This document shows positions 2,509-14,446 of a stretch of DNA of 36,419 nt, one piece after another. The translations under genes were made by a program, and so were the position numbers. Within the stretch, counting starts at the first letter, position 1. Each line of letters starts with the position of its first letter. The notes below the pieces were generated by a model. It made no database searches. It had not been told where the DNA came from and saw nothing but the letters and a program-made list of their open reading frames with translations. Source of the stretch: Gammaproteobacteria bacterium (GTDB taxonomy: Bacteria; Pseudomonadota; Gammaproteobacteria; JBGSLN01); NCBI GenBank assembly GCA_041740675.1, contig JBGSLN010000132.1, forward strand, positions 1 through 36,419, read 5' to 3'.

Positions 2509-3369
2509 CTACTGCCGAAGCAATCGGTCATTATTAAGTTGATAGTTAATTTCTGTGGTTCTAAAAGGATTAATATCAATGCCCCCACGACGAGTATATC
2601 GTGCATAGACGGTTAATTCTTTAGGTTGACATCGTTTTAAAATATTCATAAAGATACGCTCTACACATTGTTCATGAAATTCATTATGTTCTCGCAATGA
2701 GATAATATATTTTAACAGTCCAGCATGATTGATTTTTTTTCCTTGATAATGAATATAAATACTGCCCCAATCCGGTTGATTGGTTACTAAGCAATTAGAT
2801 TTTAATAAATCTGAATTTAATTCTTCTTCAATTTCTGAATGTTGTGTGGCTGAATTTTCTGTTGTTAAAAAAGAGGGGTCAGGTTGATAAGTGTTAATGG
2901 CAATATCTAAGTGATCAATATTAATTCCTGGCAATCGACAGTTAGTCTGGAAATTGTGAATTTCTTGAACAAGAGAAATTTTAATTTTAATCGATGTTTT
3001 AGTTCCTTTACTTAAATCTTCGCTAATAATTTTTTCTAGCTGATCTTTATTTGTAAATTGCATTGCATTGAAGGAAATGAGATAGAGTTTCAACGATTTT
3101 GATTCAAAGATATTTTCTGAGTCAGCTGGAACTTCAATGGTTGCAATTGCAACCATTGGTTTACCTTTGTCATTTAACCAAGATAACTCATAAGCATTCC
3201 AAATATCAACTCCTGTAAAGGGTAATATATTGTTGATACCAATTTCTTTACGTTTGATTGTTCGAGGAATAAAAAATAATAAATTTGGATTATAAGAAGA
3301 TTCATAAGCAGCTTCTTTACCGAGTGGTGAAGCTGCTTTAAGTTTTTCTATATGGAGATCATTAGCCAT
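2509..3369 (-). CDS. queF: NADPH-dependent 7-cyano-7-deazaguanine (preQ0) reductase, two-domain type
   Basis: The 286-aa length fits type II QueF. The QueF motif ESKSLKLYL is present, the catalytic Cys sits in the context SNCLVTNQPDWGS, and the C-terminal region contains HEQCVERIF. Confidence 0.9.
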   Translation of the reverse strand: MANDLHIEKLKAASPLGKEAAYESSYNPNLLFFIPRTIKRKEIGINNILPFTGVDIWNAYELSWLNDKGKPMVAIATIEVPADSENIFESKSLKLYLISFNAMQFTNKDQLEKIISEDLSKGTKTSIKIKISLVQEIHNFQTNCRLPGINIDHLDIAINTYQPDPSFLTTENSATQHSEIEEELNSDLLKSNCLVTNQPDWGSIYIHYQGKKINHAGLLKYIISLREHNEFHEQCVERIFMNILKRCQPKELTVYARYTRRGGIDINPFRTTEINYQLNNDRLLRQ

Positions 3370-4795
3370 GTGCTGTTATAGCTCGGTTAACTAACGGTCT
3401 GATTAGCCACATAATTAATGCAATCGCTGCTGCAAATAATCCAATTTTTGCAAATACATTACAATAAATTTGCAAACTCATGTGTACATCTGTAATTACC
3501 CCAGTGGGTGGAACTGTTAACGCGCCTACCCAAGCTGAAATTGGACCAGCCAACATGGTAGTTAAAAACCAAATACCCATCACAAACCCGCTCATACTAG
3601 CAGGACATAATTCTGCAACCATTGCGAGGCCTAATCCAGAAATCAATAGTTCACCGGCAGATTGGAAAAAGTAAGTGAAGACCATCCATAAAGGGGATGC
3701 TAATCCGCTTGTTGCAGTAAACTGCGGAATATATAGGATTAAAAATGCAATAGCGCATAATGTCATCCCAATGCAAAATTTAGTTGCATGTGTCCCTGGT
3801 ACTCGGTGATAAATAACTGCTAATAATGGGGAAAGAATAAAGATAAATAATGGATTAAGAGCCTGATATTCTGCGGGAGGAATATTGATACCCCAAACAA
3901 GATTATTAATATTGTGTACTGCAAAGTAAGTTAATGAAGTGGGCATTTGATTATATAAAACGAAGAACATAATGCCTTCTAAAATTAAGATAAACGCTAT
4001 TAACATCCGCGAACGTTCAGATCCATGTAATTTTAAGGCTTTTGCCACAAACCAAATAAAACCACCTGTAGTTACTATACCTACAATGGTATAACAAATA
4101 AGAATATAATTTAATAACTTACCAAAAATTAAGGTTGCTAAAATAGCACCTATTATAACAACAAGTAACCTTGACCATTTGACAGGTTCACGGCCTGCTT
4201 CTGTAGAAATATGGGCGATTAAACCATAAAATGCATAAAAACTTAAAATACCGCAAAGTAAGCCGAAGGAACACACAATAAATGCAGCGGTCCAGCCAAT
4301 TTTTACTGCAATGATGGGTGTCAATGACATAGAAACAAATGCACCAATATTAATAGCCATATAATAAAGAGTCATTGCACTGTCGAGCGCAGGATCTCCT
4401 TTTGCATAGAGCTTAGAAATTAAAGAAGAAGGATTTGCTTTAAAAAGTGCATTACCGACTACGATAGCACCTAAAGCATAATAGACCGTGCTGGTTGAGG
4501 CAAAAGCCATACCAGCATAGCCAAGCATTAATATAATCGCACCTAGGACGATACAACGCTTTGCACCTAAATAATTATCCCCAATAAAACCGCCTACCCA
4601 AATAAAGCCATAAACAAAGGAAAAAAAAGCGCCCCACAGATAAATACTGTGTGCTTGGGAAAATCCTAAGTATTTTAAAAAATAAATTGTAGCAATTGCT
4701 TGCATCCCATAAAAACCAAAGCGTTCCCAAAATTCAACTGCCCAAAATACCCAAAATGGTTTGGACATACTAGAAATTGCACTCGCTTGTTTCAT
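3362..4795 (-). CDS. Proton-dependent oligopeptide transporter (POT/PTR2 family, Dtp-like)
   Basis: It has the ExxERFxYY-type signature EFWERFGFYGMQ, the PTR2 motif GGFIGDNYLGAKR and many hydrophobic helices. I moved the start from the ORF-track 4852 to the ATG at 4795, which has AGGAG 4 nt upstream. The gene overlaps the queF start by 8 nt. Confidence 0.9.
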   Translation of the reverse strand: MKQASAISSMSKPFWVFWAVEFWERFGFYGMQAIATIYFLKYLGFSQAHSIYLWGAFFSFVYGFIWVGGFIGDNYLGAKRCIVLGAIILMLGYAGMAFASTSTVYYALGAIVVGNALFKANPSSLISKLYAKGDPALDSAMTLYYMAINIGAFVSMSLTPIIAVKIGWTAAFIVCSFGLLCGILSFYAFYGLIAHISTEAGREPVKWSRLLVVIIGAILATLIFGKLLNYILICYTIVGIVTTGGFIWFVAKALKLHGSERSRMLIAFILILEGIMFFVLYNQMPTSLTYFAVHNINNLVWGINIPPAEYQALNPLFIFILSPLLAVIYHRVPGTHATKFCIGMTLCAIAFLILYIPQFTATSGLASPLWMVFTYFFQSAGELLISGLGLAMVAELCPASMSGFVMGIWFLTTMLAGPISAWVGALTVPPTGVITDVHMSLQIYCNVFAKIGLFAAAIALIMWLIRPLVNRAITAHG

Positions 4796-4912
4796 AAAAC
4801 TCCTAAAAAATTTGACTAAAAATTCTTTGCATTTATACTCAATTAAGTCCATAGGCTTAATTTAATAAGTTCAGGCCTTATATTCATCTATTCCAGAGCT
4901 TTAAATATTAGT

Positions 4913-5848
4913 ATGCAACTATCCAAAATAAGAACATTATCTTTTAGAACAAAGCTAATATTTATTGTCATTTTAATAGCGACAGGGCTCTTCCTTTTTA
5001 ATCTTTTTACATACAAATATCAAGCATCTTCTTATATTACTTTTAACGACTTGTTAATAATATTACCAGCATATCTTTTATATATATTTTCAAAAAATAT
5101 TAAGCAGAGCCATCCATCGGTATCCTTTGCGCTTGAAGGATTTTGGTCAATAATACTGGTATCCTTTGTTATTAATTATTTTACTATAACGATCCAATAT
5201 ACTCCTTTCAAATTACAAGATGCATTATTACAGCAATGGGATTTATGGATAGGTTTTAATGTTATTACTGTTGTAAATTGGTTTTATCAATGGCCAGCGT
5301 TTATTTTTTTGATAAAAGTAGCTTATAGTACCAATATAACACAATTAATGTTTATACCACTATTTTTAGCAATTTTGCAGCAAAGACGAAGACTCGACGT
5401 TTTTTTAAATGCCACTTTATTATCTTTTATTATTGGATTTTTAATTTACTATTTTTTTCCTACGTCGGATCCTGCCCATATCCTTGTAAATCCGCATTTT
5501 ACCAAACAGATGTATTCTGTGCCAGCGCGATTTTATGATATACAGCACTATATTCCAAATGATGATCTTTCAGGGGGAATTATTGGTTTCCCTTCTTTTC
5601 ATACCATTTGGGCAATTACGGCAGCCTATTCTCTAAAAAATTATAAAATTGTTTTTTATCCATTAATAGTGTGGAACAGTTTAATTATCATTGCAACCCT
5701 CGCATTAGGGTGGCATTTTTTGGTGGATACCATTGCAGGTGTGGTGATAGTGATCTTTTCAATCCTAATTGCAGAAAAGCAATCAAAACAACAAGATTAT
5801 CCATTAAAGGCTATGTTAGCGCTTTATAAAAGAGAATTAATCAAGTAA
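4913..5848 (+). CDS. Polytopic membrane protein with PAP2-type (lipid phosphate phosphatase / sphingomyelin-synthase-like) motifs
   Basis: Multiple hydrophobic helices. Near the C-terminus it carries GFPSFHT and GWHFLVDTIAG, which resemble the S-x-H and H-x3-D motifs of the PAP2 superfamily. No SD sequence is evident, so the start is uncertain. Confidence 0.6.
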   Translation: MQLSKIRTLSFRTKLIFIVILIATGLFLFNLFTYKYQASSYITFNDLLIILPAYLLYIFSKNIKQSHPSVSFALEGFWSIILVSFVINYFTITIQYTPFKLQDALLQQWDLWIGFNVITVVNWFYQWPAFIFLIKVAYSTNITQLMFIPLFLAILQQRRRLDVFLNATLLSFIIGFLIYYFFPTSDPAHILVNPHFTKQMYSVPARFYDIQHYIPNDDLSGGIIGFPSFHTIWAITAAYSLKNYKIVFYPLIVWNSLIIIATLALGWHFLVDTIAGVVIVIFSILIAEKQSKQQDYPLKAMLALYKRELIK

Positions 5849-6485
5849 AAATTAACTCAGTTTGATGGCTAATGATTAATAATACTTCGCCATTAATACT
5901 GATGCGAGCACTGGGATGAATCAAATGATTAGAGGTGCTCTCTTGTTTGGCAAATTCTAACTTCAATTCTTGCATATCATATTTTAAACCTTTGCTTGAA
6001 ACTATAGCTTTAGGAAAGGAAAGTAATGCTAAAGGTTCAATATTATCCGCAACTATGACAATATTTTTATTTTTTATATAATAAATTTTTTCAGTTTCGG
6101 TAAAAATTGTTATTTTTTTTATTTGAGGATACACACGTTTTAAAATGCGCAAATTATGTAGGCTATGATCTAAACGTGCACCGATTGCTTGGCAGATAGT
6201 AATGGATTTAGGTTGGAGATTAAGGGCAAAATCAATGCCTTTTTCTAAATCAGTTGAATCTTGGTCAGGTATTAAAACAAATTCAATGTTGTCAATAAGG
6301 TCTCGATCAACAGAATCAAAATCACCGAGTACAATATCTGGAACAATATTTCGTTCAATACAAGAAATAATTGCCCCATCTAAGGCAATTGTTTTTTTAT
6401 CTAATTGTAACTCTGTTAGCAATTCGAGAGGTAGTATTGGTCCATTAGCTATAATTAACCAATCTTGTTGTAAAAAATCATTCAA
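5841..6485 (-). CDS. Thiamine pyrophosphokinase (thiamine diphosphokinase, TPK)
   Basis: TPK motifs are present: VLGDFDSV, DQDSTDLEKG and GARLDHSLHN, followed by a beta-rich C-terminal domain. The gene overlaps the upstream PQ-loop gene by 8 nt. Confidence 0.85.
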   Translation of the reverse strand: MNDFLQQDWLIIANGPILPLELLTELQLDKKTIALDGAIISCIERNIVPDIVLGDFDSVDRDLIDNIEFVLIPDQDSTDLEKGIDFALNLQPKSITICQAIGARLDHSLHNLRILKRVYPQIKKITIFTETEKIYYIKNKNIVIVADNIEPLALLSFPKAIVSSKGLKYDMQELKLEFAKQESTSNHLIHPSARISINGEVLLIISHQTELIFT

Positions 6486-7155
6486 GCATGCCTACTCCTT
6501 TGAAAGATACGTCAGTTTGCGAAGATGGTTTATATCGATAATATATTCCTTGGCCAAGAACAATAAATTTTTGTGCCAGTGAAATTGGCACATAATATTT
6601 ACTAGGCCAATCATAATTTAATGCATAAGTAGTAATAACGTCACATAAAGCACTGAATATCGATACTAATACAAAGCTGGTACTCAAACCTTCAGTAGAT
6701 TTATTAGCATAATTCTTTATAATCTGGGGAATGAAGAAAGTAAACCAACAAAAATTTGAAATCATTCCAGCCATATCATAAAAAAACTTAGTATGCTTAT
6801 CGATTGTGATAGTCAATATTGCATAGCAAAAAAAAGTAATAAAGAAAATACTGATAAAATAAAAAATTTGTAGTTCAAAAAATGATTTTAAACCGTATTT
6901 CCAAAATTGAAAATGTTCAATTGCTAAATAGCATAAACCGAAGATAGTGACCATTCTATATTGAATAGGCATTTCTCGGCCAAAACCATAAACCAAATCA
7001 GCTAAATATCCTGCAACTAATAGGCCATGCATCCATAAACTCAATCCCGATGTGCTTTTTCGTTTGAATGTTAATCGTACCTGTGGCAAAAACCAAATAA
7101 AATAGAGAAAGGTAGAGATATTTAAACTAAGTTCACCAATCATATGTACATTCAT
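6478..7155 (-). CDS. PQ-loop repeat membrane protein with two PQ repeats, in the ~7-TM cystinosin/PQLC-like architecture
   Basis: Two PQ motifs lie roughly 115 aa apart, each followed by K-S-T-x-G-L-S (LPQVRLTFKRKSTSGLS and IPQIIKNYANKSTEGLS). The protein is hydrophobic throughout. Its start codon shares 1 nt with the MscS stop (TGATG). Confidence 0.75.
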   Translation of the reverse strand: MNVHMIGELSLNISTFLYFIWFLPQVRLTFKRKSTSGLSLWMHGLLVAGYLADLVYGFGREMPIQYRMVTIFGLCYLAIEHFQFWKYGLKSFFELQIFYFISIFFITFFCYAILTITIDKHTKFFYDMAGMISNFCWFTFFIPQIIKNYANKSTEGLSTSFVLVSIFSALCDVITTYALNYDWPSKYYVPISLAQKFIVLGQGIYYRYKPSSQTDVSFKGVGMLE

Positions 7156-7964
7156 CAGAGGCTCCCATTTTCTTTTTTAAGATGTAAGTCTAATTGTGGA
7201 AATGGTAAAGAAATATTTTCTTCAGAGAACTTTTGCTTAACAGCTTCCAGCAATTTATGTTTAGCAATAGTGTAATTCTCAGTTAACACCCAAAATCGAA
7301 CAAGCATTATAATTGAGCTATCAGCCAAATTAGCCACTCCTATAACAGGTTGTTCTGATTGTACAACAAAGTCAGCTGTTGATAACATTGTTTCAAGTAA
7401 ATTTTTTGCTTTTTGTAAGTCAGTTTCATAGCCAACACCAATTTCTATATCCAAGCGACGTAATTTATAAAATGATTGGTTAGTAATGGGATTAACAATA
7501 ATACCGTTATTGGGAATAAATATGCATTCATTCGAAGAGCTTTTTAATTGAGTCAAAAACAAATTAATATTAATAATGGTTCCGGAATTCCCATTTACTA
7601 CAATAAAATCCCCAATTTTAAAAGGGCGTAGAAATATAATCAAAAATCCAGCAGCAATATTGCTAAGAAAATCTTTTAATGCAAAGCCAATGGCCAGACT
7701 GCCTGCACCCAGCAGAGTAATAAGTGTAGCAGTAGGAACCCCTAACTTTCCTAAAGTCATAATAATAGTAATAACCAGAACAACAGAAAAAACTAAATTA
7801 GTGAGGAATGTTATCAGTATTTCATCATTTTTAATTTTCATTCCATGTTTTAAAAACCGTTTTAATATAGAAGCAATAGTTATACCAACGATAAGAATTA
7901 ATAAAGCAGCAAAAAGATGTGGTAGATATGACAGAATATAAGTCTCATAGGTTTTTAGTAACAT
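7155..7964 (-). CDS. Small-conductance mechanosensitive channel (MscS family)
   Basis: N-terminal TM helices are followed by the pore-lining Gly/Ala-rich helix (LLGAGSLAIGFALKDFLSNIAAG) and the beta domain FKIGDFIVVNGNSGTIININLFLTQLK, which is typical of MscS. Confidence 0.85.
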   Translation of the reverse strand: MLLKTYETYILSYLPHLFAALLILIVGITIASILKRFLKHGMKIKNDEILITFLTNLVFSVVLVITIIMTLGKLGVPTATLITLLGAGSLAIGFALKDFLSNIAAGFLIIFLRPFKIGDFIVVNGNSGTIININLFLTQLKSSSNECIFIPNNGIIVNPITNQSFYKLRRLDIEIGVGYETDLQKAKNLLETMLSTADFVVQSEQPVIGVANLADSSIIMLVRFWVLTENYTIAKHKLLEAVKQKFSEENISLPFPQLDLHLKKENGSL

Positions 7965-8045
7965 TTATTTGTTCACTCACATTATTTATAGTTTCAGCGT
8001 ATTAGTGCTTTTTGTTGCGATTTCTATCGCAGAATTTTGACTTAA

Positions 8046-8750
8046 CTACTCAACCATTACTTTTTCAATGGCCGTAACAATATCTTGCACTAATGATGTT
8101 TTACAATTTCCTGATAAATCAAAGTGTTTTTGGTTCATTTCAATTTCTATACCCAAGTAATATTTATTAGGAGTTTGTTTTCGTAAAAAAGAAGTAAAGC
8201 CATCACTCACTCCTCGATATGGGTAATTAAAGCGAATTTTAAAATCCTGGTTAATAAAATGCATAATTGATTTAAAATTTTCACAAAACTTTTTTTCTTG
8301 TAATCGTTGGGGGTCGTAAAGAAGACCAACATCATTATTTCGAAATTCCCCATTTAATTCAGGCGTAAAGCTATGTAATGACAAATGCAATACCGAAATT
8401 CTTCTAGAGTAATAATCATGAATATGGTTGCTTAGCCAATTGCGATAAGGATGATAATAATTTTTTAGTATATTATTTTTTTCAGTTTCAGAAAGATGTT
8501 TAGTAACATTTGAAAATAAATTTTTATTTTTTAAGGAACGGTTCAAGTCAATTAACAAACGACTCCATTGAGCAGCTTTATGTTGAGTCGCTAATTTTTT
8601 TTTGCAAATAGCGTGATAAAGCCTATCAGCGCCAATATCCGAACCACGGTGACTTTTAATCAGTTTTTGTTGATTGATAAATAAATGTGAATATTGAGTT
8701 GGAATATTTTTAGAAGCATGCTCACAACTTATTATTAATACAGATTTCAT
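8046..8750 (-). CDS. N-formylglutamate amidohydrolase (FGase) family hydrolase
   Basis: FGase-like motifs are present: ISCEHASKNIP, LHLSLHSFTP and NYPYRGVSDGFT. I moved the start from the ORF-track 8780 to the ATG at 8750. This gives an ATGA start/stop overlap with the upstream GCS2 gene. Confidence 0.75.
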   Translation of the reverse strand: MKSVLIISCEHASKNIPTQYSHLFINQQKLIKSHRGSDIGADRLYHAICKKKLATQHKAAQWSRLLIDLNRSLKNKNLFSNVTKHLSETEKNNILKNYYHPYRNWLSNHIHDYYSRRISVLHLSLHSFTPELNGEFRNNDVGLLYDPQRLQEKKFCENFKSIMHFINQDFKIRFNYPYRGVSDGFTSFLRKQTPNKYYLGIEIEMNQKHFDLSGNCKTSLVQDIVTAIEKVMVE

Positions 8751-9985
8751 GCTAGAAAAATTTGATTGTCCGCTAAACACTGCGAAAGCTTGCGATAGGT
8801 AGACATCAGTGTTGCGGGGGTTGGTTCATTTCCAGTGGCTTGCAAAATACGCTCAGCAAGTGTGCCAGCTTGAGTTAATTGAATAAAGTTATTATAAATA
8901 GCTTCAGGCAAATAATTTTTATGCAATCTTTCTGCAGTAGCAAGCCAAAATTCTTTAGCTTGCATTTTTTTAGGAAAATCTAATTTAAATTGTTCTAATA
9001 ACATTACATCAGTTATCATGGTGTTACTACCATCACTCACACAATCAATGAAGGTCTTTTTTAATTGCACAGAATCAATAGGGTTAATTAGGTATTCATC
9101 AGTATTATCGACGATATATTTTAATAATTGCTGAATGAAATATGCATAAGTAATGTCTGCTAATGGACATTCTTGGGTATCAACCACACGAATTTCGATT
9201 GCCATTCGATCAAACCGAGCAATAGCGCCACGTGAATTTAACCATTCATCTTGTAATATTTCTTCTGGATCATGAGGAGCAATGGCTTGGTATAGTGGAT
9301 TTAAAATAACATCTTGATAATGTTGTTTGCTAGTGACAAATTCAGGAACCACGTGACCAGTAATCGCAGGAATTTTCTCCTGGTTTTTTCGATAAAAATT
9401 TAATCGTGCATCTAACCAATCAGATTTTTTTCCTTCAACGAATGGGCTACTGGCTGTCAATGATGGAATAAGTGGTAATAATATTCGGATAGCGTTATGC
9501 AATTTTTTAAATTCAGCATCGTTAGCAAAGGGTAAATTAATATGAATACTCTGTAAATTAGACCATCCATGACCTTTGCAATCAAAAATTCGATTATAAC
9601 AAGAATAAATTTTTTTATCGCCATGTGACCAAAGTTCTACACCTTTTTCAGGATCAAACCAAGGATGCATACCTGTGGGCAGCAACATTGCTTGGTGATT
9701 TTGCAAGAAAGCATTGATTTTTTTTACTGTTTCATGAAACTGTAAATGCAAGGCATAAGAAAATTTTTTAGGGCCATTGGTCTTAAATTCGAGAACATGC
9801 TTTACCAGCTCATTACTGATAGCAATTTCACCCAAATCAACTTCATTGGTAATTTCACCAGCAAAGTGTTCTAAAATTTTATCTGCCACAGGCATTATTT
9901 CTAGTGTAGTTTGATTTACAATCATGTATTCAATTTCTATGCCAACAGCAGAGAAAATAGATAAATAATTATTGCTTGAGGCCAT
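8747..9985 (-). CDS. GCS2-type carboxylate-amine ligase (YbdK / glutamate-cysteine ligase family 2-like)
   Basis: The N-terminal GIEIEYMIV metal-ligand motif and the later AIEIRVVDTQ segment are typical of GCS2. The protein is 412 aa and overlaps the ATP-grasp gene by 17 nt. Confidence 0.75.
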   Translation of the reverse strand: MASSNNYLSIFSAVGIEIEYMIVNQTTLEIMPVADKILEHFAGEITNEVDLGEIAISNELVKHVLEFKTNGPKKFSYALHLQFHETVKKINAFLQNHQAMLLPTGMHPWFDPEKGVELWSHGDKKIYSCYNRIFDCKGHGWSNLQSIHINLPFANDAEFKKLHNAIRILLPLIPSLTASSPFVEGKKSDWLDARLNFYRKNQEKIPAITGHVVPEFVTSKQHYQDVILNPLYQAIAPHDPEEILQDEWLNSRGAIARFDRMAIEIRVVDTQECPLADITYAYFIQQLLKYIVDNTDEYLINPIDSVQLKKTFIDCVSDGSNTMITDVMLLEQFKLDFPKKMQAKEFWLATAERLHKNYLPEAIYNNFIQLTQAGTLAERILQATGNEPTPATLMSTYRKLSQCLADNQIFLA

Positions 9986-11423
9986 GGCTTTTATCCAATC
10001 TGTTTTTAAATGTCATTAATATAGAGTTATAAAGCTCAAATCCCAAATATTCATCTTCGATACCAGCATCGATAGTCGGATTATCATTAATTTCGATTAC
10101 ATATGCTTTACCATCTACTTGTTTTAAATCAACCCCATATAAGCCATCACCGATTAATTTAGTGGCTTTCAGGCTAGTAGTTAGAATAGCAGGTGGGACT
10201 TCTGAAATAGGCAGGGTGTCAAATAATCCAGTTTGCTCTTGTGCACTACTCCAATTATAAATTTGCCAATGTTCTTTAGCCATGTAATATCGGCAGGCAT
10301 AAATCGGTTTATGCTCGATGATGCCAATCCGCCAATCAAAGTCAGATGGCATAAACTCTTGTAAAATGAGTAAATCTGAGGTTTTAAAAAAATTTCTACA
10401 AAATTCTTCCGCAGCTTTTTGATCATTAGCTTTTACTACGCCTTTGGAAAAAGCACTGTCAGGTAATTTAATCACACAAGGATATTCAATTGTCTCCAGT
10501 ACTTGCTTTGCATTAGCTTTATTAATGATAATAGTTTTAGGAGTATTAATATTGTGTTTTTTCATTAATTCAGCAAGATATACTTTGTTGGTGCACTTCA
10601 GAATCGAAATAGGGTCATCAATAACTGTTAATCCTTCTGCCGCAGCTTTGCGAGCAAATCGATAGGTATGATGGTTAACGGCAGTAGTTTCACGAATAAA
10701 TAAAGCGTCATATTCACTTATAGTTTTATAATCATCTTTTTCAACTAATTCTATGTTAATATTTAATTTTCGCCCAGCCGAAATAAATTTTTCGATTGCT
10801 TTTTTATTGGAAGGAGGAGTTTTTTCTTTAGGATTATATAATAACGCGATATCGTAGAAATAACCTTTTGCAGATTTAATTGGTGTGCGTCGCTGCATAT
10901 ACTCACCCATAATATCCGATAAAAAAGCATGGTGAGTATTAGGAACATCTTTAATGCTAACAGGGATAATTTTTTTAGCTTGCCAATGTTTATTTTTCAC
11001 AAAGTAAACTTTAAAAAGTGGTAATGGTACCAGTGAATATAATTTTCTTGCTAATTTATTATGAGTTTTAGCAATATTTCTCCCAAAATATACGCTAAGC
11101 TCAAAATGTTCCGATTGAATTGTTCGTAAAGAAAATTGTATTTCTTCATCTAATTCATCATTAATATAGATGCAGGTATTTTTAATATTAATATCTTGAA
11201 TCGCAAGTACGTTAGGCAATACTTTGTGCCCTCTTGCTTCAGCAAGCAAGGAAACATAATATCCAATCGATTGGTAAGAATAATTAGCGCAGAGATTGAT
11301 AATGCGAATGTTTTTCTCTTGCTCACAAGAATGATCTAAATAATCTATAGCGTCGATGATAGAGGTTTTGTCGTAAATTGGTTTAAGTGAAAAGATATCT
11401 TCCGTAACAATTTTAATTTTCAT
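9969..11423 (-). CDS. RimK-type ATP-grasp ligase with an N-terminal extension of about 200 aa (RLAN-like)
   Basis: The C-terminal half carries ATP-grasp motifs: YPCVIKLPDSAFSKGVVKA, LILQEFMPSDFDWRIGII and GLYGVDLKQVDGKAYVIEINDNP. The N-terminal half has no catalytic motif I recognise. The gene overlaps the upstream peptidase gene by 11 nt. Confidence 0.85.
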   Translation of the reverse strand: MKIKIVTEDIFSLKPIYDKTSIIDAIDYLDHSCEQEKNIRIINLCANYSYQSIGYYVSLLAEARGHKVLPNVLAIQDINIKNTCIYINDELDEEIQFSLRTIQSEHFELSVYFGRNIAKTHNKLARKLYSLVPLPLFKVYFVKNKHWQAKKIIPVSIKDVPNTHHAFLSDIMGEYMQRRTPIKSAKGYFYDIALLYNPKEKTPPSNKKAIEKFISAGRKLNINIELVEKDDYKTISEYDALFIRETTAVNHHTYRFARKAAAEGLTVIDDPISILKCTNKVYLAELMKKHNINTPKTIIINKANAKQVLETIEYPCVIKLPDSAFSKGVVKANDQKAAEEFCRNFFKTSDLLILQEFMPSDFDWRIGIIEHKPIYACRYYMAKEHWQIYNWSSAQEQTGLFDTLPISEVPPAILTTSLKATKLIGDGLYGVDLKQVDGKAYVIEINDNPTIDAGIEDEYLGFELYNSILMTFKNRLDKSHGLKQ

Positions 11424-12159
11424 AATATTTTTTTGATATTAATAATAGGTTTGCGTCGTAAGTTAGTACACCAAGCATAATTGCATTAATCAAGCGACTT
11501 ATGCTCACTTTATAATAATTATCTCCAGAAATTGGGTTAGCTTGATGTGGGTCAGCAACAACCACATGTCGATGAGTTTTATCATATCCGCATAAAACCA
11601 CAAAATGTCCACCAGGCATGCCAATCAAATCATCATAGACGGTCAAATTTTGATTGTCTTTAGTTTCTTCTATATTAGGATTTTCATATTCACGCATACT
11701 TTGATAGAGATAAGTGGCACTGAGACCGGTAATAATGGGGATTTTTTGTTTAAAAATTTGTTTCAATAGTTGTGGCGTTAAATTTTTTTGTAAAACGGTA
11801 CCACCTAACTCTAAATAATGTATATATGCTTCAGAGCTTTCAATGATTCTCAACATATTTTTATGATTCAATTGCAACGTTAATTTCTCTATGAGTTGCT
11901 GGTTATTCAATTTCTGATGATTAAACCAAGTAGGATCAAAAATATCAATATTATAAGCATAAATCAAACATTGATAGCCACGTTTTAATGCATGAATGGC
12001 AAGTAATGGGGCAAGGGTTCCACCAGTCACTACGCTTTTAGCTTCAGTAATAGTTTGTTCTAACGAAATATGATCACCATAATACTCATATACAGAATGT
12101 AAGCTTGTTGGACCACAAGTAACGTCGTCAGGTTGGGTTTGAATTTTAATATTTAGCAT
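11413..12159 (-). CDS. Papain-fold cysteine peptidase, C39-like
   Basis: The N-terminal QTQPDDVTCGPTSL provides a Gln oxyanion-hole residue followed by a Cys nucleophile. A later GGHFVVLCGYD...VVVADPH provides the His and Asp. This is the first gene of the four-gene operon. Confidence 0.7.
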   Translation of the reverse strand: MLNIKIQTQPDDVTCGPTSLHSVYEYYGDHISLEQTITEAKSVVTGGTLAPLLAIHALKRGYQCLIYAYNIDIFDPTWFNHQKLNNQQLIEKLTLQLNHKNMLRIIESSEAYIHYLELGGTVLQKNLTPQLLKQIFKQKIPIITGLSATYLYQSMREYENPNIEETKDNQNLTVYDDLIGMPGGHFVVLCGYDKTHRHVVVADPHQANPISGDNYYKVSISRLINAIMLGVLTYDANLLLISKKYYEN

Positions 12160-12186
12160 AAGGCTAGCTTAATCAATTATTTATAA

Positions 12187-12195
12187 ATTATAACA
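12187..12195 (-). promoter_or_regulatory. Candidate extended -10 (TGTTATAAT) for the 8046-12159 operon
   Basis: The minus strand reads TGTTATAAT, ending about 27 nt upstream of the ATG at 12159. The -35 is poor (CACTAC). This is pattern match only. Confidence 0.3.
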
Positions 12196-12423
12196 TATTG
12201 TGAAAAAAAGTAGTGGGTATTTTGGTGCCTTTTTGGCAAGAATACTGAATATATGTGATTATAGCAAAGCCTGATGCCTGATTTGTGTGAACGTTTTGCT
12301 ATGAGCCCAGATTGGCCTTAGAGGGACGTTCCTATCTAGCTACTGAAGCATTATGAATATTTTGACCTGCTATCGCCTCGATGGTAAACTGCGTTCCGAT
12401 ATTAAATACTGGGTAAGAAGATA

Positions 12424-13044
12424 ATGATAAAAAGAAGAGTCATATTAACTTTTTTGAACCTGATTTTAGTCGGGATCATTTTATCACTTAGTGGCTGTGC
12501 AACGCCACAACCGCAAAATCTTAATAATGTTTGCGCCATCTTCCAACAAAATCCAAATTGGTATCGTTATGCTAAACGCAGCCAAAACCATTGGGGTATA
12601 CCAATAAGTACGCTGATGGCTATTATGTATCAAGAATCGCGTTTTCAACCGACAGTTAAACCACCACGCGAAAAGCTCTTTTCTGTCATCCCTTGGACAC
12701 GTCCTACCAGCGCAGATGGCTATTCACAAGCAACCTATGAGACTTGGTGGGAGTTTCAAGATGATACAGATAACTTTGCCGCTCAACGATCTAATTTTAA
12801 AGATGCTATTTATTTTGTCGGCTGGTATTCCCGCTTAGCCCATGACAAGCTTCGCATTCCTTTGAATAATACATTTGAACTTTATTTAGCATACCATGAA
12901 GGTATTTTAGGTTACGCGCAAAGAAGTTATGCACGACAAGCATGGTTAATTGCTGTAGCTCATCGAGTGGAGGCCCAAGCTAATATCTATCATTATCAAC
13001 TAAACCAATGCGGTCCAAACTATGTGAGGAGTAATTGGGGATAA
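12424..13044 (+). CDS. Lipoprotein with an SLT-like lytic transglycosylase domain
   Basis: It has a signal peptide with the lipobox LSLSGC. MYQESRF contains the E-S catalytic pair typical of SLT/goose-lysozyme-like transglycosylases. Confidence 0.7.
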   Translation: MIKRRVILTFLNLILVGIILSLSGCATPQPQNLNNVCAIFQQNPNWYRYAKRSQNHWGIPISTLMAIMYQESRFQPTVKPPREKLFSVIPWTRPTSADGYSQATYETWWEFQDDTDNFAAQRSNFKDAIYFVGWYSRLAHDKLRIPLNNTFELYLAYHEGILGYAQRSYARQAWLIAVAHRVEAQANIYHYQLNQCGPNYVRSNWG

Positions 13045-13048
13045 AAAG

Positions 13049-14446
13049 TTACCTTTTATAATTTACTAAATCTAATAAATGACTCAAGTTTCGCGCTAAA
13101 GGATCCTTCGGATTTTTTTCATATTCCTTCACATATGCATCAAGTAAATAATGGAATTTAGGCACATTGAGTACACTCATCATTTTTTCTGCACGTTCCA
13201 CATGATGGAGAATGCTGTAATCACACGTGTGCACCAAAATTGTTGAAAGGCTTTGTGCTTTAATTGCTTTTCGGGGCACACTGGCAGTTTTGAAAGTTTG
13301 AATACATTCATCAATCGCGCGGTCTTGATCCCATTGCACCCATTGTTGAAAAAAAGCCATGGCTTGGTCAGCATAATTTGCTAAATTTCGTCGATCAAAC
13401 TGGCCACTTTCTTCTAACAGTAATATAAATAATATTGCAGGAATAGTTGCTTCGACATTAGCCCACGAACAATTTCCAGTGATTTGCGGCGGTACAGGCA
13501 ACGAATAAATTTCGCGTAAATCTAAAATTTTATTCAAGCCAAAATGAATGTATTCTTGTTCATTATGTTTATAAAGAATTTTCTTCATCATCATCGGAGA
13601 GAATTTTTTTGGATCAGGCATTTTATAAATGGTCACTGTTTTATGATTACGTCCATATTCACCGCGATCACATTTAATTAATATATCTTGAAATTTAATT
13701 AGAGTAACAGCATGGCCTGTATATACTACGGGAATAAGCACTAAATTTTCTTCTAATAAGGGATTAATGACATTGAGATGTTGTTCAATTTTAGTGGAGT
13801 ATTGTTGATATTTAATTAATGTTGCAGATGATTGTAAGGCATGAACGATACGGTCGACTTTTTTAAAGTAGTGGTGTAACCGTTTTGCCGCATAATTTTT
13901 TTTAAATCGATTGAGAGAATCTTGAATTAAATTTGCGGTGAATTCAAAAATAAATCCTTCATAGTCTACTAAGATAAATTTGCCTTCTGGGCTAAAAATA
14001 TGTGTTTGTCCAGGCAAAGAAAAGCGATGGCCTAATAATTTCGCATTAATAAAATCTTGGGCAAAATGTAAATCTGCACCATGAGAATAGAGCAATTGTT
14101 TTAAATCAAAATGACCACGAAGCAGGGGATAAACTAAAAGCGGTTGTGAAGAAAAAGAATAACTATTTGGATTGGCATTATGCTTCAATAACAACTGACA
14201 CATGGGTAGATTGCGGTTATCAGTTGCCCAATGTAATGCAGTACGGCCTGTGACATCAGGCATATCCACGGTTGCTCCATGTTGCAGTAGTAATTCTGCC
14301 ACATCAACTTTTTGCATGATCGCAGCCTCGACCATTGGATTAAAACCGTATTCATCAATTTCAAAAACATTTGCACCGCGTTCAATAGCATGTGCGACGT
14401 CAGCTTTAGTTCCATTAATAATAATATCTGCGAAAGATGTAGTCAT
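13049..14446 (-). CDS. Ankyrin-repeat protein with a C-terminal domain of about 330 aa (possible Cys-peptidase-like effector)
   Basis: About four ANK repeats occupy residues 1-130 (e.g. DVTGRTALHWATDNRNLPMCQLLLKHNANPN). The C-terminal domain has an ordered His245 (YTGHAV), Asp254/260, Gln321 and Cys326 (QITGNCSW). Confidence 0.85.
   Translation of the reverse strand: MTTSFADIIINGTKADVAHAIERGANVFEIDEYGFNPMVEAAIMQKVDVAELLLQHGATVDMPDVTGRTALHWATDNRNLPMCQLLLKHNANPNSYSFSSQPLLVYPLLRGHFDLKQLLYSHGADLHFAQDFINAKLLGHRFSLPGQTHIFSPEGKFILVDYEGFIFEFTANLIQDSLNRFKKNYAAKRLHHYFKKVDRIVHALQSSATLIKYQQYSTKIEQHLNVINPLLEENLVLIPVVYTGHAVTLIKFQDILIKCDRGEYGRNHKTVTIYKMPDPKKFSPMMMKKILYKHNEQEYIHFGLNKILDLREIYSLPVPPQITGNCSWANVEATIPAILFILLLEESGQFDRRNLANYADQAMAFFQQWVQWDQDRAIDECIQTFKTASVPRKAIKAQSLSTILVHTCDYSILHHVERAEKMMSVLNVPKFHYLLDAYVKEYEKNPKDPLARNLSHLLDLVNYKR

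Follow-up and report, generated by a model that had tools for sequence, protein, structure and literature searches.

What does a bacterium make with an operon that encodes two ligases for amide bonds and two enzymes predicted to cleave them? We address this question for a stretch of 36,419 nt (referred to here as the window), which covers positions 1 to 36,419 of contig JBGSLN010000132.1 from a gammaproteobacterium (GenBank assembly GCA_041740675.1; GTDB lineage JBGSLN01). Four consecutive minus-strand open reading frames (ORFs) span positions 12159 to 8046 of the window. In order, they encode a papain-fold, C39-like cysteine peptidase (gene 1), an ATP-grasp ligase of the RimK type with an N-terminal RLAN domain (gene 2), a GCS2/YbdK-type carboxylate-amine ligase (gene 3), and an FGase-family amidohydrolase (gene 4). 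The catalytic residues of all four families are intact, the gene order is kept across phyla, and no partner gene is conserved beside them. We tentatively read the operon as a self-contained cytoplasmic module that would build and trim a glutamate-containing peptide, converting free amino acids into an intracellular oligopeptide; we consider this plausible, if short of probable. The product that we favor is a small oligopeptide resembling glutathione or N-acetylaspartylglutamate (NAAG), made from ordinary cytoplasmic amino acids, rather than a secreted natural product.

An initial annotation, made from the sequence of the window, had recognized a four-gene operon by its overlapping reading frames and by short peptide motifs. 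All of the quoted motifs were found in the ORF translations, and overlaps of 11, 17, and 4 nt were seen when the reverse strand was read directly. Searches with Pfam recovered the four family assignments at E values from 4e-10 to 4e-44 and identified the ~200-amino-acid (aa) N-terminal extension of the ATP-grasp ligase as an RLAN domain. On the basis of the overlapping codons, the four proteins may be co-expressed stoichiometrically, as the annotation had proposed.

In gene 2, the RLAN match (4e-44; aa 27 to 169) is followed by a RimK match (5e-10; aa 279 to 453). Among NCBIfam models, rimK_fam (TIGR00768) aligns to aa 192 to 450 with 76 bits, relative to a cutoff of 143, and the MptN and LysX models score nearly as high. 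The RimK and GshB equivalogs give 30.7 bits (NF007764; cutoff, 331) and 33.9 bits (cutoff, 408), respectively. Within the ATP-grasp region, K319, D363-W364-R365, D432, E444, and N446 are invariant among homologues. In a profile alignment, the structure of Pseudomonas RimK (PDB entry 7qyr) matches the C-terminal part of the protein at 8.8e-9; the invariant R244, R365, and N446 correspond to R64, R189, and N262 of RimK. Each of these RimK residues is reported to be an oligo-glutamate contact, an acyl-phosphate contact, or an active-site position (PMC10092738).

The RLAN domain carries a conserved signature of N43, Q51, G54-Y55-Y56, R64, and Y112-F113-G114 (79 sequences). Its structural model is of the alpha/beta type, with a predicted local distance difference test score (pLDDT) of 74, and a Foldseek search with it gave no significant match to a PDB fold (best E value, 0.05). 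Two assignments were considered for this domain and set aside. Because C45 is substituted in 6 of the 79 sequences and H66 likewise in 6, so that neither is strictly invariant, we do not propose that RLAN is a hidden Cys/His enzyme. A rhodanese-like identity was also rejected, as Foldseek returned just weak local matches to SIS, rhodanese, and ATP-grasp N-domains (E > 0.05). The RLAN profile retrieves 900 clusters at 50% identity among 1.84 billion representative proteins. Among the full-length matches listed, the domain lies either at the N terminus of ~485-aa proteins or at about residues 150 to 360 of ~650-aa proteins; it always precedes an ATP-grasp-sized remainder or follows an N-terminal extension of ~150 aa. 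The linker that joins RLAN to the ATP-grasp region is modeled as disordered (pLDDT < 50). In most homologues, it has a strongly basic consensus (KKRFHxxRKKxR), whereas the window linker (aa ~175 to 190; nt ~10854 to 10901) reads QRRTPIKSAKG and is far less basic. Homologues of gene 2 number at least 8,000 in a set of 5.8 billion proteins. The closest among the matches listed are 84%, 80%, and 70% identical, and several Legionella species encode a "RimK family protein" with 51 to 53% identity.

Gene 3 matches GCS2 at 2.6e-27 (Pfam). Its nearest NCBIfam model is the YbdK family (55 bits; cutoff, 176), and models of the gshA type give at most 37 bits (cutoffs, 249 to 463). The residues E17, E19, E59, H63, E66, H148, N150, R252, E264, and R266 are conserved, and the sole relative in the PDB is a remote one, plant glutamate-cysteine ligase (2e-3). 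Gene 4 matches FGase at 8.4e-22 (Pfam) and conserves E10, H11, D38, R64, H122, H126, E202, and E204. HutG (TIGR02017) is its nearest NCBIfam model, with 23.8 bits against a cutoff of 278.75. The family profile of gene 4 finds Atu2144 of Agrobacterium (PDB entry 2odf), an FGase-family protein without an assigned function, at 9e-33, compared to 5e-3 for a true N-formylglutamate amidohydrolase (2q7s). Atu2144 is the closest solved relative of gene 4; for the other three proteins, the PDB search returned remote relatives only.

The gene 1 protein matches Peptidase_C39_2 at 3.6e-10, with weaker matches to Peptidase_C39 and to Guanylate_cyc_2/GUCD1-like families (Pfam). It contains a papain-fold core in which Q9, C15, H185, and D203 are at least 95% conserved among 53 homologues; these Gln, Cys, His, and Asp residues are the predicted catalytic residues. 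An AlphaFold model (pLDDT, 81) likewise adopts a papain fold. Its best matches among PDB folds are C39 double-glycine peptidase domains (6mpz, 1.6e-4; ComA), and it also matches a putative C39-like peptidase (3erv). The match to the primitive phytochelatin synthase of Nostoc, Alr0975, is nearly equal (2e-4), and the PDB entries of Alr0975 include glutathione-bound and acyl-enzyme forms. The initial annotation had counted two amide-bond hydrolases in the operon. Both families stand, but the papain-fold enzyme could act as a transpeptidase instead of a hydrolase. The protein is stand-alone, with no ABC exporter fused or adjacent to it, and inspection by eye revealed no signal peptide at the N terminus of any of the four proteins.

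The distribution of the operon was surveyed in a species-level scan (one genome per species), in which at least 587 stretches, of 600 candidates listed, encode a relative of the RLAN-ATP-grasp ligase. Neighborhoods were examined for the best 80 of these, with partner genes located by tblastn using the four window proteins. The 80 loci include proteobacterial ones (Legionella, Tatlockia, and other Gammaproteobacteria) as well as Bacteroidota, Balneolaceae, Planctomycetota, Nitrospirota, Nitrospinota, Acidobacteriota, Verrucomicrobiota, Kiritimatiellales, Spirochaetota, Fibrobacter, and metagenome-assembled genomes of Myxococcota and Desulfobacterota types, among others. Across them, the ATP-grasp protein is 43 to 52% identical to that of the window. 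Cross-phylum identity is 43 to 55% for the ATP-grasp ligase and peptidase and ~35 to 50% for the GCS2 and FGase proteins.

Architectures were counted only for loci with enough flanking sequence (64 evaluable), with P, A, G, and F denoting the peptidase, RLAN-ATP-grasp, GCS2, and FGase genes. The full P-A-G-F cassette, in the same order and strand as in the window, is the architecture of 37 loci from many phyla, so the four-gene association is no chance arrangement and extends well beyond Legionellales. The FGase gene alone is missing from a further 12 (P-A-G); the remainder are A alone (6 loci), A-G (5), P-A (2), A-G-F (1), and A-F (1). Taken gene by gene, GCS2 is adjacent in 62 of 72 evaluable loci, the papain-fold peptidase lies upstream in 60 of 75, and FGase is present in 40 of 65. 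FGase is thus an optional component of the cassette, and it nearly never occurs without GCS2 (38 of 39). The peptidase and GCS2 are tightly linked, with GCS2 found in 49 of 51 peptidase-bearing loci. The median estimated intergenic gaps in related loci (7, -1, and 2 nt) indicate that tight packing is a trait of the family and that the overlaps in the window are typical.

Several loci depart from this plan. In four of them (L033, 6469 to 8410; L043, 2080 to 4090; L064, 914 to 3768; and L069, 6512 to 8476), peptidase, GCS2, and FGase are all missing, and a small GCN5-related N-acetyltransferase (GNAT) gene overlaps, abuts, or is fused to the RLAN-ATP-grasp gene; the fusion in L069 is a 654-aa GNAT-RLAN-ATP-grasp protein. 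A gene resembling Orn/DAP/Arg decarboxylases, and one gene more, follow this variant in L033 and L043. In Breznakibacter xylanolyticus (L013, 6752 to 9165), FGase directly follows the RLAN-ATP-grasp gene without GCS2 or peptidase; this is the only A-F arrangement among the evaluable loci. The Pseudomonas aeruginosa plasmid pZYPA1927 (NZ_CP133752.1; L081, 4908 to 6497) carries a stand-alone RLAN-RimK homologue of 529 aa (41% identical), annotated as "RimK family alpha-L-glutamate ligase." It is convergent with a class I/II aminotransferase gene, and pagP and a glutamate/aspartate ABC transporter lie close by, surroundings that resemble part of a chromosome. One contig (L023) is labeled Oscillospiraceae (Firmicutes), the sole Gram-positive-type label among the 80, which could reflect a binning error or horizontal transfer.

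No further component of the cassette emerged. When all ORFs of at least 60 aa from the 80 loci were clustered, no fifth conserved gene was found; the next most frequent family after the cassette genes, an ABC ATPase, occurs in 9 of the 80 loci, and the remainder are shadow ORFs. The 129 genes that directly flank cassettes fall into 115 Pfam families, none in more than four loci. The family shared by four loci is the GNAT of the variant architecture, and no conserved transporter or regulator is present among the 129. Nor is any ORF of 15 to 70 aa conserved beside the cassette (63 loci checked on the upstream side), and virtually none of the flanking ORFs of this size has an acidic C terminus. 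The 264-nt spacer upstream of the operon in the window holds just ORFs of 20 to 45 aa, none of them conserved. The lack of a conserved small ORF argues against a LysW-like carrier or a precursor of a ribosomally synthesized and post-translationally modified peptide (RiPP) in cis. This agrees with the annotation, which had seen no precursor or substrate gene in the operon; none is conserved in related loci either. Loci that lack FGase have no consistent replacement for it, and neither the window region nor nine related loci yielded an Rfam element or riboswitch. Two other contexts were considered and rejected. Assignment to a defense system was rejected because none of the four proteins matched PADLOC-DB and no homologue turned up in a phage collection. 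As for cargo of mobile elements, homologues were found in just 11 plasmid records, mostly Azospirillum replicons of megaplasmid or chromid size.

The chemistry of the four families constrains what such a cassette may do. In general, ATP-grasp enzymes of the RimK, MptN, CofF, and LysX types convert a terminal carboxylate to an acyl-phosphate and create an alpha-peptide bond with glutamate on either side. GCS2 and other ligases of the glutamine synthetase (GS) fold activate a carboxylate, typically the gamma-carboxylate of Glu, and couple it to an amine. FGase-family enzymes, which belong to a zinc-exopeptidase-like fold class, hydrolyze the N-acyl bond of N-acyl-L-glutamate, and papain-fold enzymes hydrolyze or transfer acyl groups via a thioester.

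We infer the substrate identities, the order of steps, the bond cut by each hydrolase, and the small-molecule acceptor in the following scheme. The GCS2-type ligase would form an acyl-phosphate on a carboxylate, with the gamma-carboxylate of glutamate as the likeliest candidate, and join it to an amine, giving a gamma-glutamyl amide (gamma-Glu-X). The RLAN-RimK ligase would then activate the free alpha-carboxylate of gamma-Glu-X and add one or more alpha-linked L-glutamates. Of the two hydrolases, the FGase-like metallo-amidohydrolase would take off the C-terminal (N-acylated) glutamate, undoing the RimK-type step, and the papain-fold Cys enzyme, which tracks with GCS2, would hydrolyze or transfer the other bond, much as phytochelatin synthase acts on glutathione. 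Acting together, the two hydrolases may determine how long the product is and how it is turned over or recycled. In the GNAT variant, N-acetylation would take the place of gamma-glutamylation as the N-cap before RimK-like addition of Glu. This variant fits the scheme because it mirrors the chemistry by which an N-acetyl-amino acid is extended by a RimK-like ligase (NAAG, RIMKLA).

Several observations support a small-peptide product. The combination of a GCS2 ligase with an ATP-grasp ligase repeats the fold pairing of GshA and GshB, the ATP-grasp protein sits in the RimK/MptN/LysX/CofF clade, whose members attach alpha-L-Glu to a terminal Glu carboxylate or act on one, residues of RimK that contact poly-Glu or acyl-phosphate align to invariant positions of gene 2, and GCS2 co-occurs with both the peptidase and FGase. 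Such a product is favored over a modified protein because the GCS2 and FGase relatives of known activity act on small molecules, because the peptidase is about as similar to a glutathione-processing enzyme as to C39 enzymes, and because nothing protein-like is co-encoded. Intracellular substrates and an intracellular product would fit the lack of any conserved precursor ORF, carrier, exporter, regulator, or riboswitch and of any apparent signal peptide.

Other points weigh against this reading. Neither a substrate nor a product has been observed, and gene 2 is as similar to protein-directed RimK and LysX as it is to cofactor-directed MptN. Peptides or proteins are the usual targets of C39 and other papain-fold enzymes. 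The RLAN domain and the level of cross-phylum identity would make sense, too, if the cassette recognized a conserved protein whose gene lies elsewhere. Two ligases placed beside two hydrolases that undo them look futile unless regulated, and about one-third of cassettes lack FGase and have nothing consistent in its stead.

The main rival to the small-peptide reading is that the same enzymes write and erase a protein tail, which we regard as possible but unlikely. These two alternatives are the ones that the annotation had put forward, and the evidence gathered here is compatible with either. In the protein-tail case, the RLAN domain would recognize a conserved protein with a gene outside the cassette, e.g., a ribosomal protein, and the RimK-type domain would add alpha-glutamates to its C terminus. 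GCS2 would amidate or branch the gamma-carboxylate of Glu, the Cys peptidase would expose or remove the tail, and the FGase-like enzyme would trim the terminal Glu in the manner of a deglutamylase. Cross-phylum conservation that is unusually high and flat in a compact family is consistent with such a role, as are the extra RLAN domain, the lack of a substrate encoded in cis, and a peptidase closest to C39 peptide-processing enzymes. The GNAT partners also bring to mind RimI, RimJ, and RimL, which acetylate ribosomal proteins. Protein-directed RimK and LysX are among the best ATP-grasp matches, and RimK offers a precedent together with its co-transcribed protease RimB, which takes glutamates off S6 (PMC11957791, PMC10092738, PMC7343187). 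However, gene 2 scores far below the RimK equivalog cutoff, and several residues in the N-domain of RimK that contact poly-Glu (e.g., R8; PMC10092738) are apparently lost, according to a by-eye reading outside the 7qyr alignment. In addition, no candidate target has been identified, and the GCS2 and FGase relatives of known activity act on free amino acid derivatives.

A bolder version, which we think somewhat more doubtful still, is that the cassette constitutes the writer and eraser set of an undescribed protein modification. Once recruited by the RLAN domain, a conserved protein with a gene elsewhere would have a C-terminal oligo-glutamate tail lengthened by the RimK-type domain; GCS2 would make an amide branch or cross-link, and the hydrolases would erase the mark. 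Pupylation, which uses a GS-fold ligase, provides an analogy for GCS2 acting on the gamma-carboxylates of a tail. If true, this would amount to a system akin to the tubulin code or to pupylation across more than 10 bacterial phyla.

Alternatively, the product may be a storage or buffer polymer similar to cyanophycin, which we consider improbable. The RLAN-RimK ligase would make an alpha-poly-glutamate backbone, GCS2 would decorate its gamma-carboxylates with an amine or amino acid, and a Cys endopeptidase and an FGase-like exo-amidase would mobilize it. The presence of ligases and hydrolases in one operon would follow, since loci for storage polymers typically pair a synthetase with a depolymerase (cphA/cphB), and the module is self-contained and lacks an exporter. 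In vitro, RimK itself synthesizes free poly-alpha-L-glutamate, an activity that its partner protease enhances (PMC11957791). On the other hand, there is no report of such a polymer, the cassette has no gene for a primer-binding or granule-associated protein, and the similarity to cyanophycin synthetase is of a generic ATP-grasp kind (1.8e-4, far below the cutoff).

Catabolic gamma-glutamylation of the Puu type is very improbable. GS-fold ligases gamma-glutamylate amines in the catabolism of polyamines, isopropylamine, and ethanolamine, and hydrolases such as those of the operon could process and release the product; the cassette, however, includes no conserved oxidoreductase or aminotransferase, and the RimK-type Glu ligase would be left without a role.

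Hardly any credence is due to the view that these are divergent housekeeping enzymes, i.e., gshA and gshB for glutathione, rimK for S6, or hutG for histidine catabolism, even though some homologue records are named "ribosomal protein S6 modification protein" or "glutathione synthase/RimK-type ligase." Every NCBIfam equivalog cutoff is missed by a wide margin, which rules out the canonical-enzyme identity that the initial annotation had named as the finding that would remove the novelty. In place of the ~300 aa of a canonical RimK without an N-terminal extension, gene 2 encodes 484 aa, including an RLAN region that the solved RimK chains (~300 aa) leave uncovered. The FGase profile prefers Atu2144 by far over true HutG, and there are no hut genes among the neighbors. 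Equally far-fetched is maturation of a RiPP or bacteriocin, in which a C39 leader peptidase and an ATP-grasp macrocyclase would process a ribosomal precursor peptide: the peptidase fold is C39-like and there is a weak match to ATP-grasp maturases of the MvdC type (3.8e-3), but no small ORF is conserved beside the cassette in the loci checked, the peptidase has no ABC or PCAT transporter fused to it or next to it, the ATP-grasp protein is of the RimK type, and RiPP clusters are not typically so highly conserved across phyla.

The cassette shares three folds with the chemistry of glutathione and phytochelatins: a GS-fold gamma-glutamyl ligase, an ATP-grasp ligase acting on an alpha-carboxylate, and a papain-fold enzyme, which in that pathway acts on the tripeptide. 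The window proteins nevertheless score far below the cutoffs for GshA and GshB, the RimK-type ATP-grasp suggests Glu as donor rather than glycine, and cysteine as a substrate has no support here. The likeness of the window peptidase to phytochelatin synthase is at the level of the fold (template modeling score, ~0.4; 11% identity).

In NAAG synthesis, the GNAT NAT8L acts with the RimK-like RIMKLA/B, and in the bacterial synthesis of N-acetylglutaminylglutamine amide (NAGGN), the GNAT-ATP-grasp protein Ngg is used. These systems rely on a RimK-like ligase to attach Glu to an N-acylated amino acid, and fusions of GNAT to RLAN-ATP-grasp occur in the cassette family; the window cassette, however, uses GCS2 in place of GNAT. 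To our knowledge, RLAN is absent from RIMKLA and Ngg. PCAT-type C39 peptidases accompany an ABC exporter and a gene for a double-glycine precursor, neither of which was found with the window peptidase. The RimABK system of Pseudomonas combines a RimK-type ATP-grasp ligase with a dedicated peptidase that removes the residues added by the ligase (PMC11957791, PMC7343187, PMC10092738). Residues for ATP, Mg, and the acyl-phosphate are conserved between its RimK and gene 2. RimB is a retropepsin-type Asp peptidase, whereas the window peptidase is a papain-fold Cys enzyme. The window ligase also differs in its extra RLAN domain and in falling below the RimK equivalog cutoff, and the cassette adds a GCS2 ligase and an FGase-like amidohydrolase and lacks the phosphodiesterase RimA.

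The closest precedent is computational. An amidoligase survey by Iyer, Abhiman, Burroughs, and Aravind (Mol Biosyst 2009) reportedly predicted a peptide synthesis or tagging neighborhood comprising RLAN-ATP-grasp, GCS2, FGase, and papain-like (or GNAT) proteins, and it is said to be the source of the Pfam domain RLAN (PF14401). The annotation, too, had cited amidoligase surveys as having flagged such neighborhoods. Relative to the neighborhood so reported, the window has the same RLAN and RimK-like ATP-grasp architecture and the same GCS2, FGase, and papain-like peptidase partners, the GNAT appears in variant loci, and nothing substantive sets the window locus apart. Its PF14401-RimK gene is accompanied by an adjacent same-strand GCS2 gene, an upstream peptidase gene encoding a Cys/His/Asp triad, and a downstream FGase gene. 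Two papers that refer to this survey back parts of the account; operonic linkage of ATP-grasp genes to COOH-NH2 ligases or GNATs is presented as a recurrent theme (PMC4431377). The searchable full-text literature yielded no experimental characterization of the cassette, and the statement in the annotation that no product had been experimentally defined holds there as well.

Coordinates of the operon, its junctions, and its downstream neighbors are given in Table 1. The longest FGase ORF (8046 to 8780, 244 aa) opens at an in-frame GTG at 8780. The start is probably the ATG at 8750 instead, because conservation among homologues begins at residue 9 of the form starting there (CEH motif). The candidate promoter is the joint best site of the region; it constitutes weak evidence, as promoter-like sites in the region are not in excess over shuffles.

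Table 1. Positions of the four-gene operon, its domains and junctions, and nearby features in the window
Feature	Position	Strand	Basis or remark
Gene 1, papain-fold, C39-like cysteine peptidase, 248 aa	11413..12159	-	Peptidase_C39_2
Gene 2, RLAN + RimK-type ATP-grasp ligase, 484 aa	9969..11423	-	RLAN + RimK Pfam
RLAN domain of gene 2, aa 27-169, conserved N-terminal alpha/beta	10917..11345	-	RLAN 4e-44
Pre-ATP-grasp + ATP-grasp catalytic region of gene 2, ~aa 192-455	10059..10850	-	TIGR00768 alignment
Gene 3, GCS2/YbdK-type carboxylate-amine (GS-fold) ligase, 412 aa	8747..9985	-	GCS2 Pfam
Gene 4, FGase-family amidohydrolase, Atu2144-like subfamily, 234 aa from ATG 8750	8046..8750	-	FGase Pfam
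Peptidase stop/ATP-grasp start overlap, 11 nt, ATGAAAATTAA	11413..11423	-	Reverse strand read directly
ATP-grasp stop/GCS2 start overlap, 17 nt, ATGGCCTCAAGCAATAA	9969..9985	-	Reverse strand read directly
GCS2 stop/FGase start overlap, ATGA	8747..8750	-	Reverse strand read directly
Candidate sigma-70-like promoter, TTCACA-17-AATAAT, 17 nt upstream of peptidase start	12176..12204	-	10/12 consensus matches
Inverted repeat, 14 nt 3' of FGase stop, possible weak operon end	8015..8032	.	Terminator-like on + strand
MscS-type mechanosensitive channel	7964-7155	-	3' neighbor of cassette
Two-repeat PQ-loop membrane protein, shares base 7155 with MscS gene	7155-6478	-	
Thiamin pyrophosphokinase (TPK), 8-nt overlap with PQ-loop gene	6485-5841	-	

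Three further minus-strand genes (5841 to 7964), for MscS, PQ-loop, and TPK proteins, are packed stop-to-start on the 3' side of the cassette. As the inverted repeat after the FGase gene has no minus-strand T-run, transcription may continue into the MscS gene. Since just 81 nt and this weak hairpin part the three genes from the FGase gene, all seven genes could share one transcript. Both PQ-loop proteins and TPK are more characteristic of eukaryotes. On the other side, an SLT_4 lytic-transglycosylase lipoprotein gene (12424 to 13044, plus strand) lies divergently upstream of the cassette, and beyond it a minus-strand gene (13049 to 14446) encodes a 465-aa protein whose N-terminal ankyrin repeats (Ank_2, 2.4e-19) are followed by a C-terminal region of ~350 aa without a Pfam match. 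This ankyrin protein is of a eukaryote-like type common among Legionellales effectors. A di/tripeptide transporter gene of the POT family (3362 to 4852, minus strand) lies ~3 kb downstream of the cassette. Neither the SLT_4 lipoprotein gene nor the POT gene is kept beside the cassette in other genomes. The MscS neighbor is common to 2 of the 80 loci, and the MscS, PQ-loop, TPK, SLT lipoprotein, and ankyrin genes all lie outside the conserved unit. The rpsF gene is not among the genes of the window. The host genome has a low GC content (~33%), and its top protein matches point to a relative of Legionellales.

The window operon is one more member of a computationally defined system with its own Pfam domain, and nothing in this copy is surprising. 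To that system, the present survey adds architecture frequencies, the coupling of the peptidase and GCS2 as a core, the optional status of FGase, the lack of a cis-encoded substrate or fifth gene, and the GNAT alternative. For annotation, it follows that the window genes are not rimK, gshA, or hutG and give no basis for predicting that the organism modifies S6, makes glutathione, or degrades histidine. Several hundred or more species-level genomes, from many phyla, retain the pair of ATP-dependent amide ligases and the pair of amide hydrolases in a fixed order, and cross-phylum identity of 35 to 55% together with the conserved order points to a function under strong selection. As the module is small and self-contained and has cultivable hosts (Pontibacter, Azospirillum, Blastopirellula marina, and several Legionella species), it can be tested directly by expression and mass spectrometry. 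The function that it serves could be a new low-molecular-weight peptide, a storage polymer, or a reversible protein tag.

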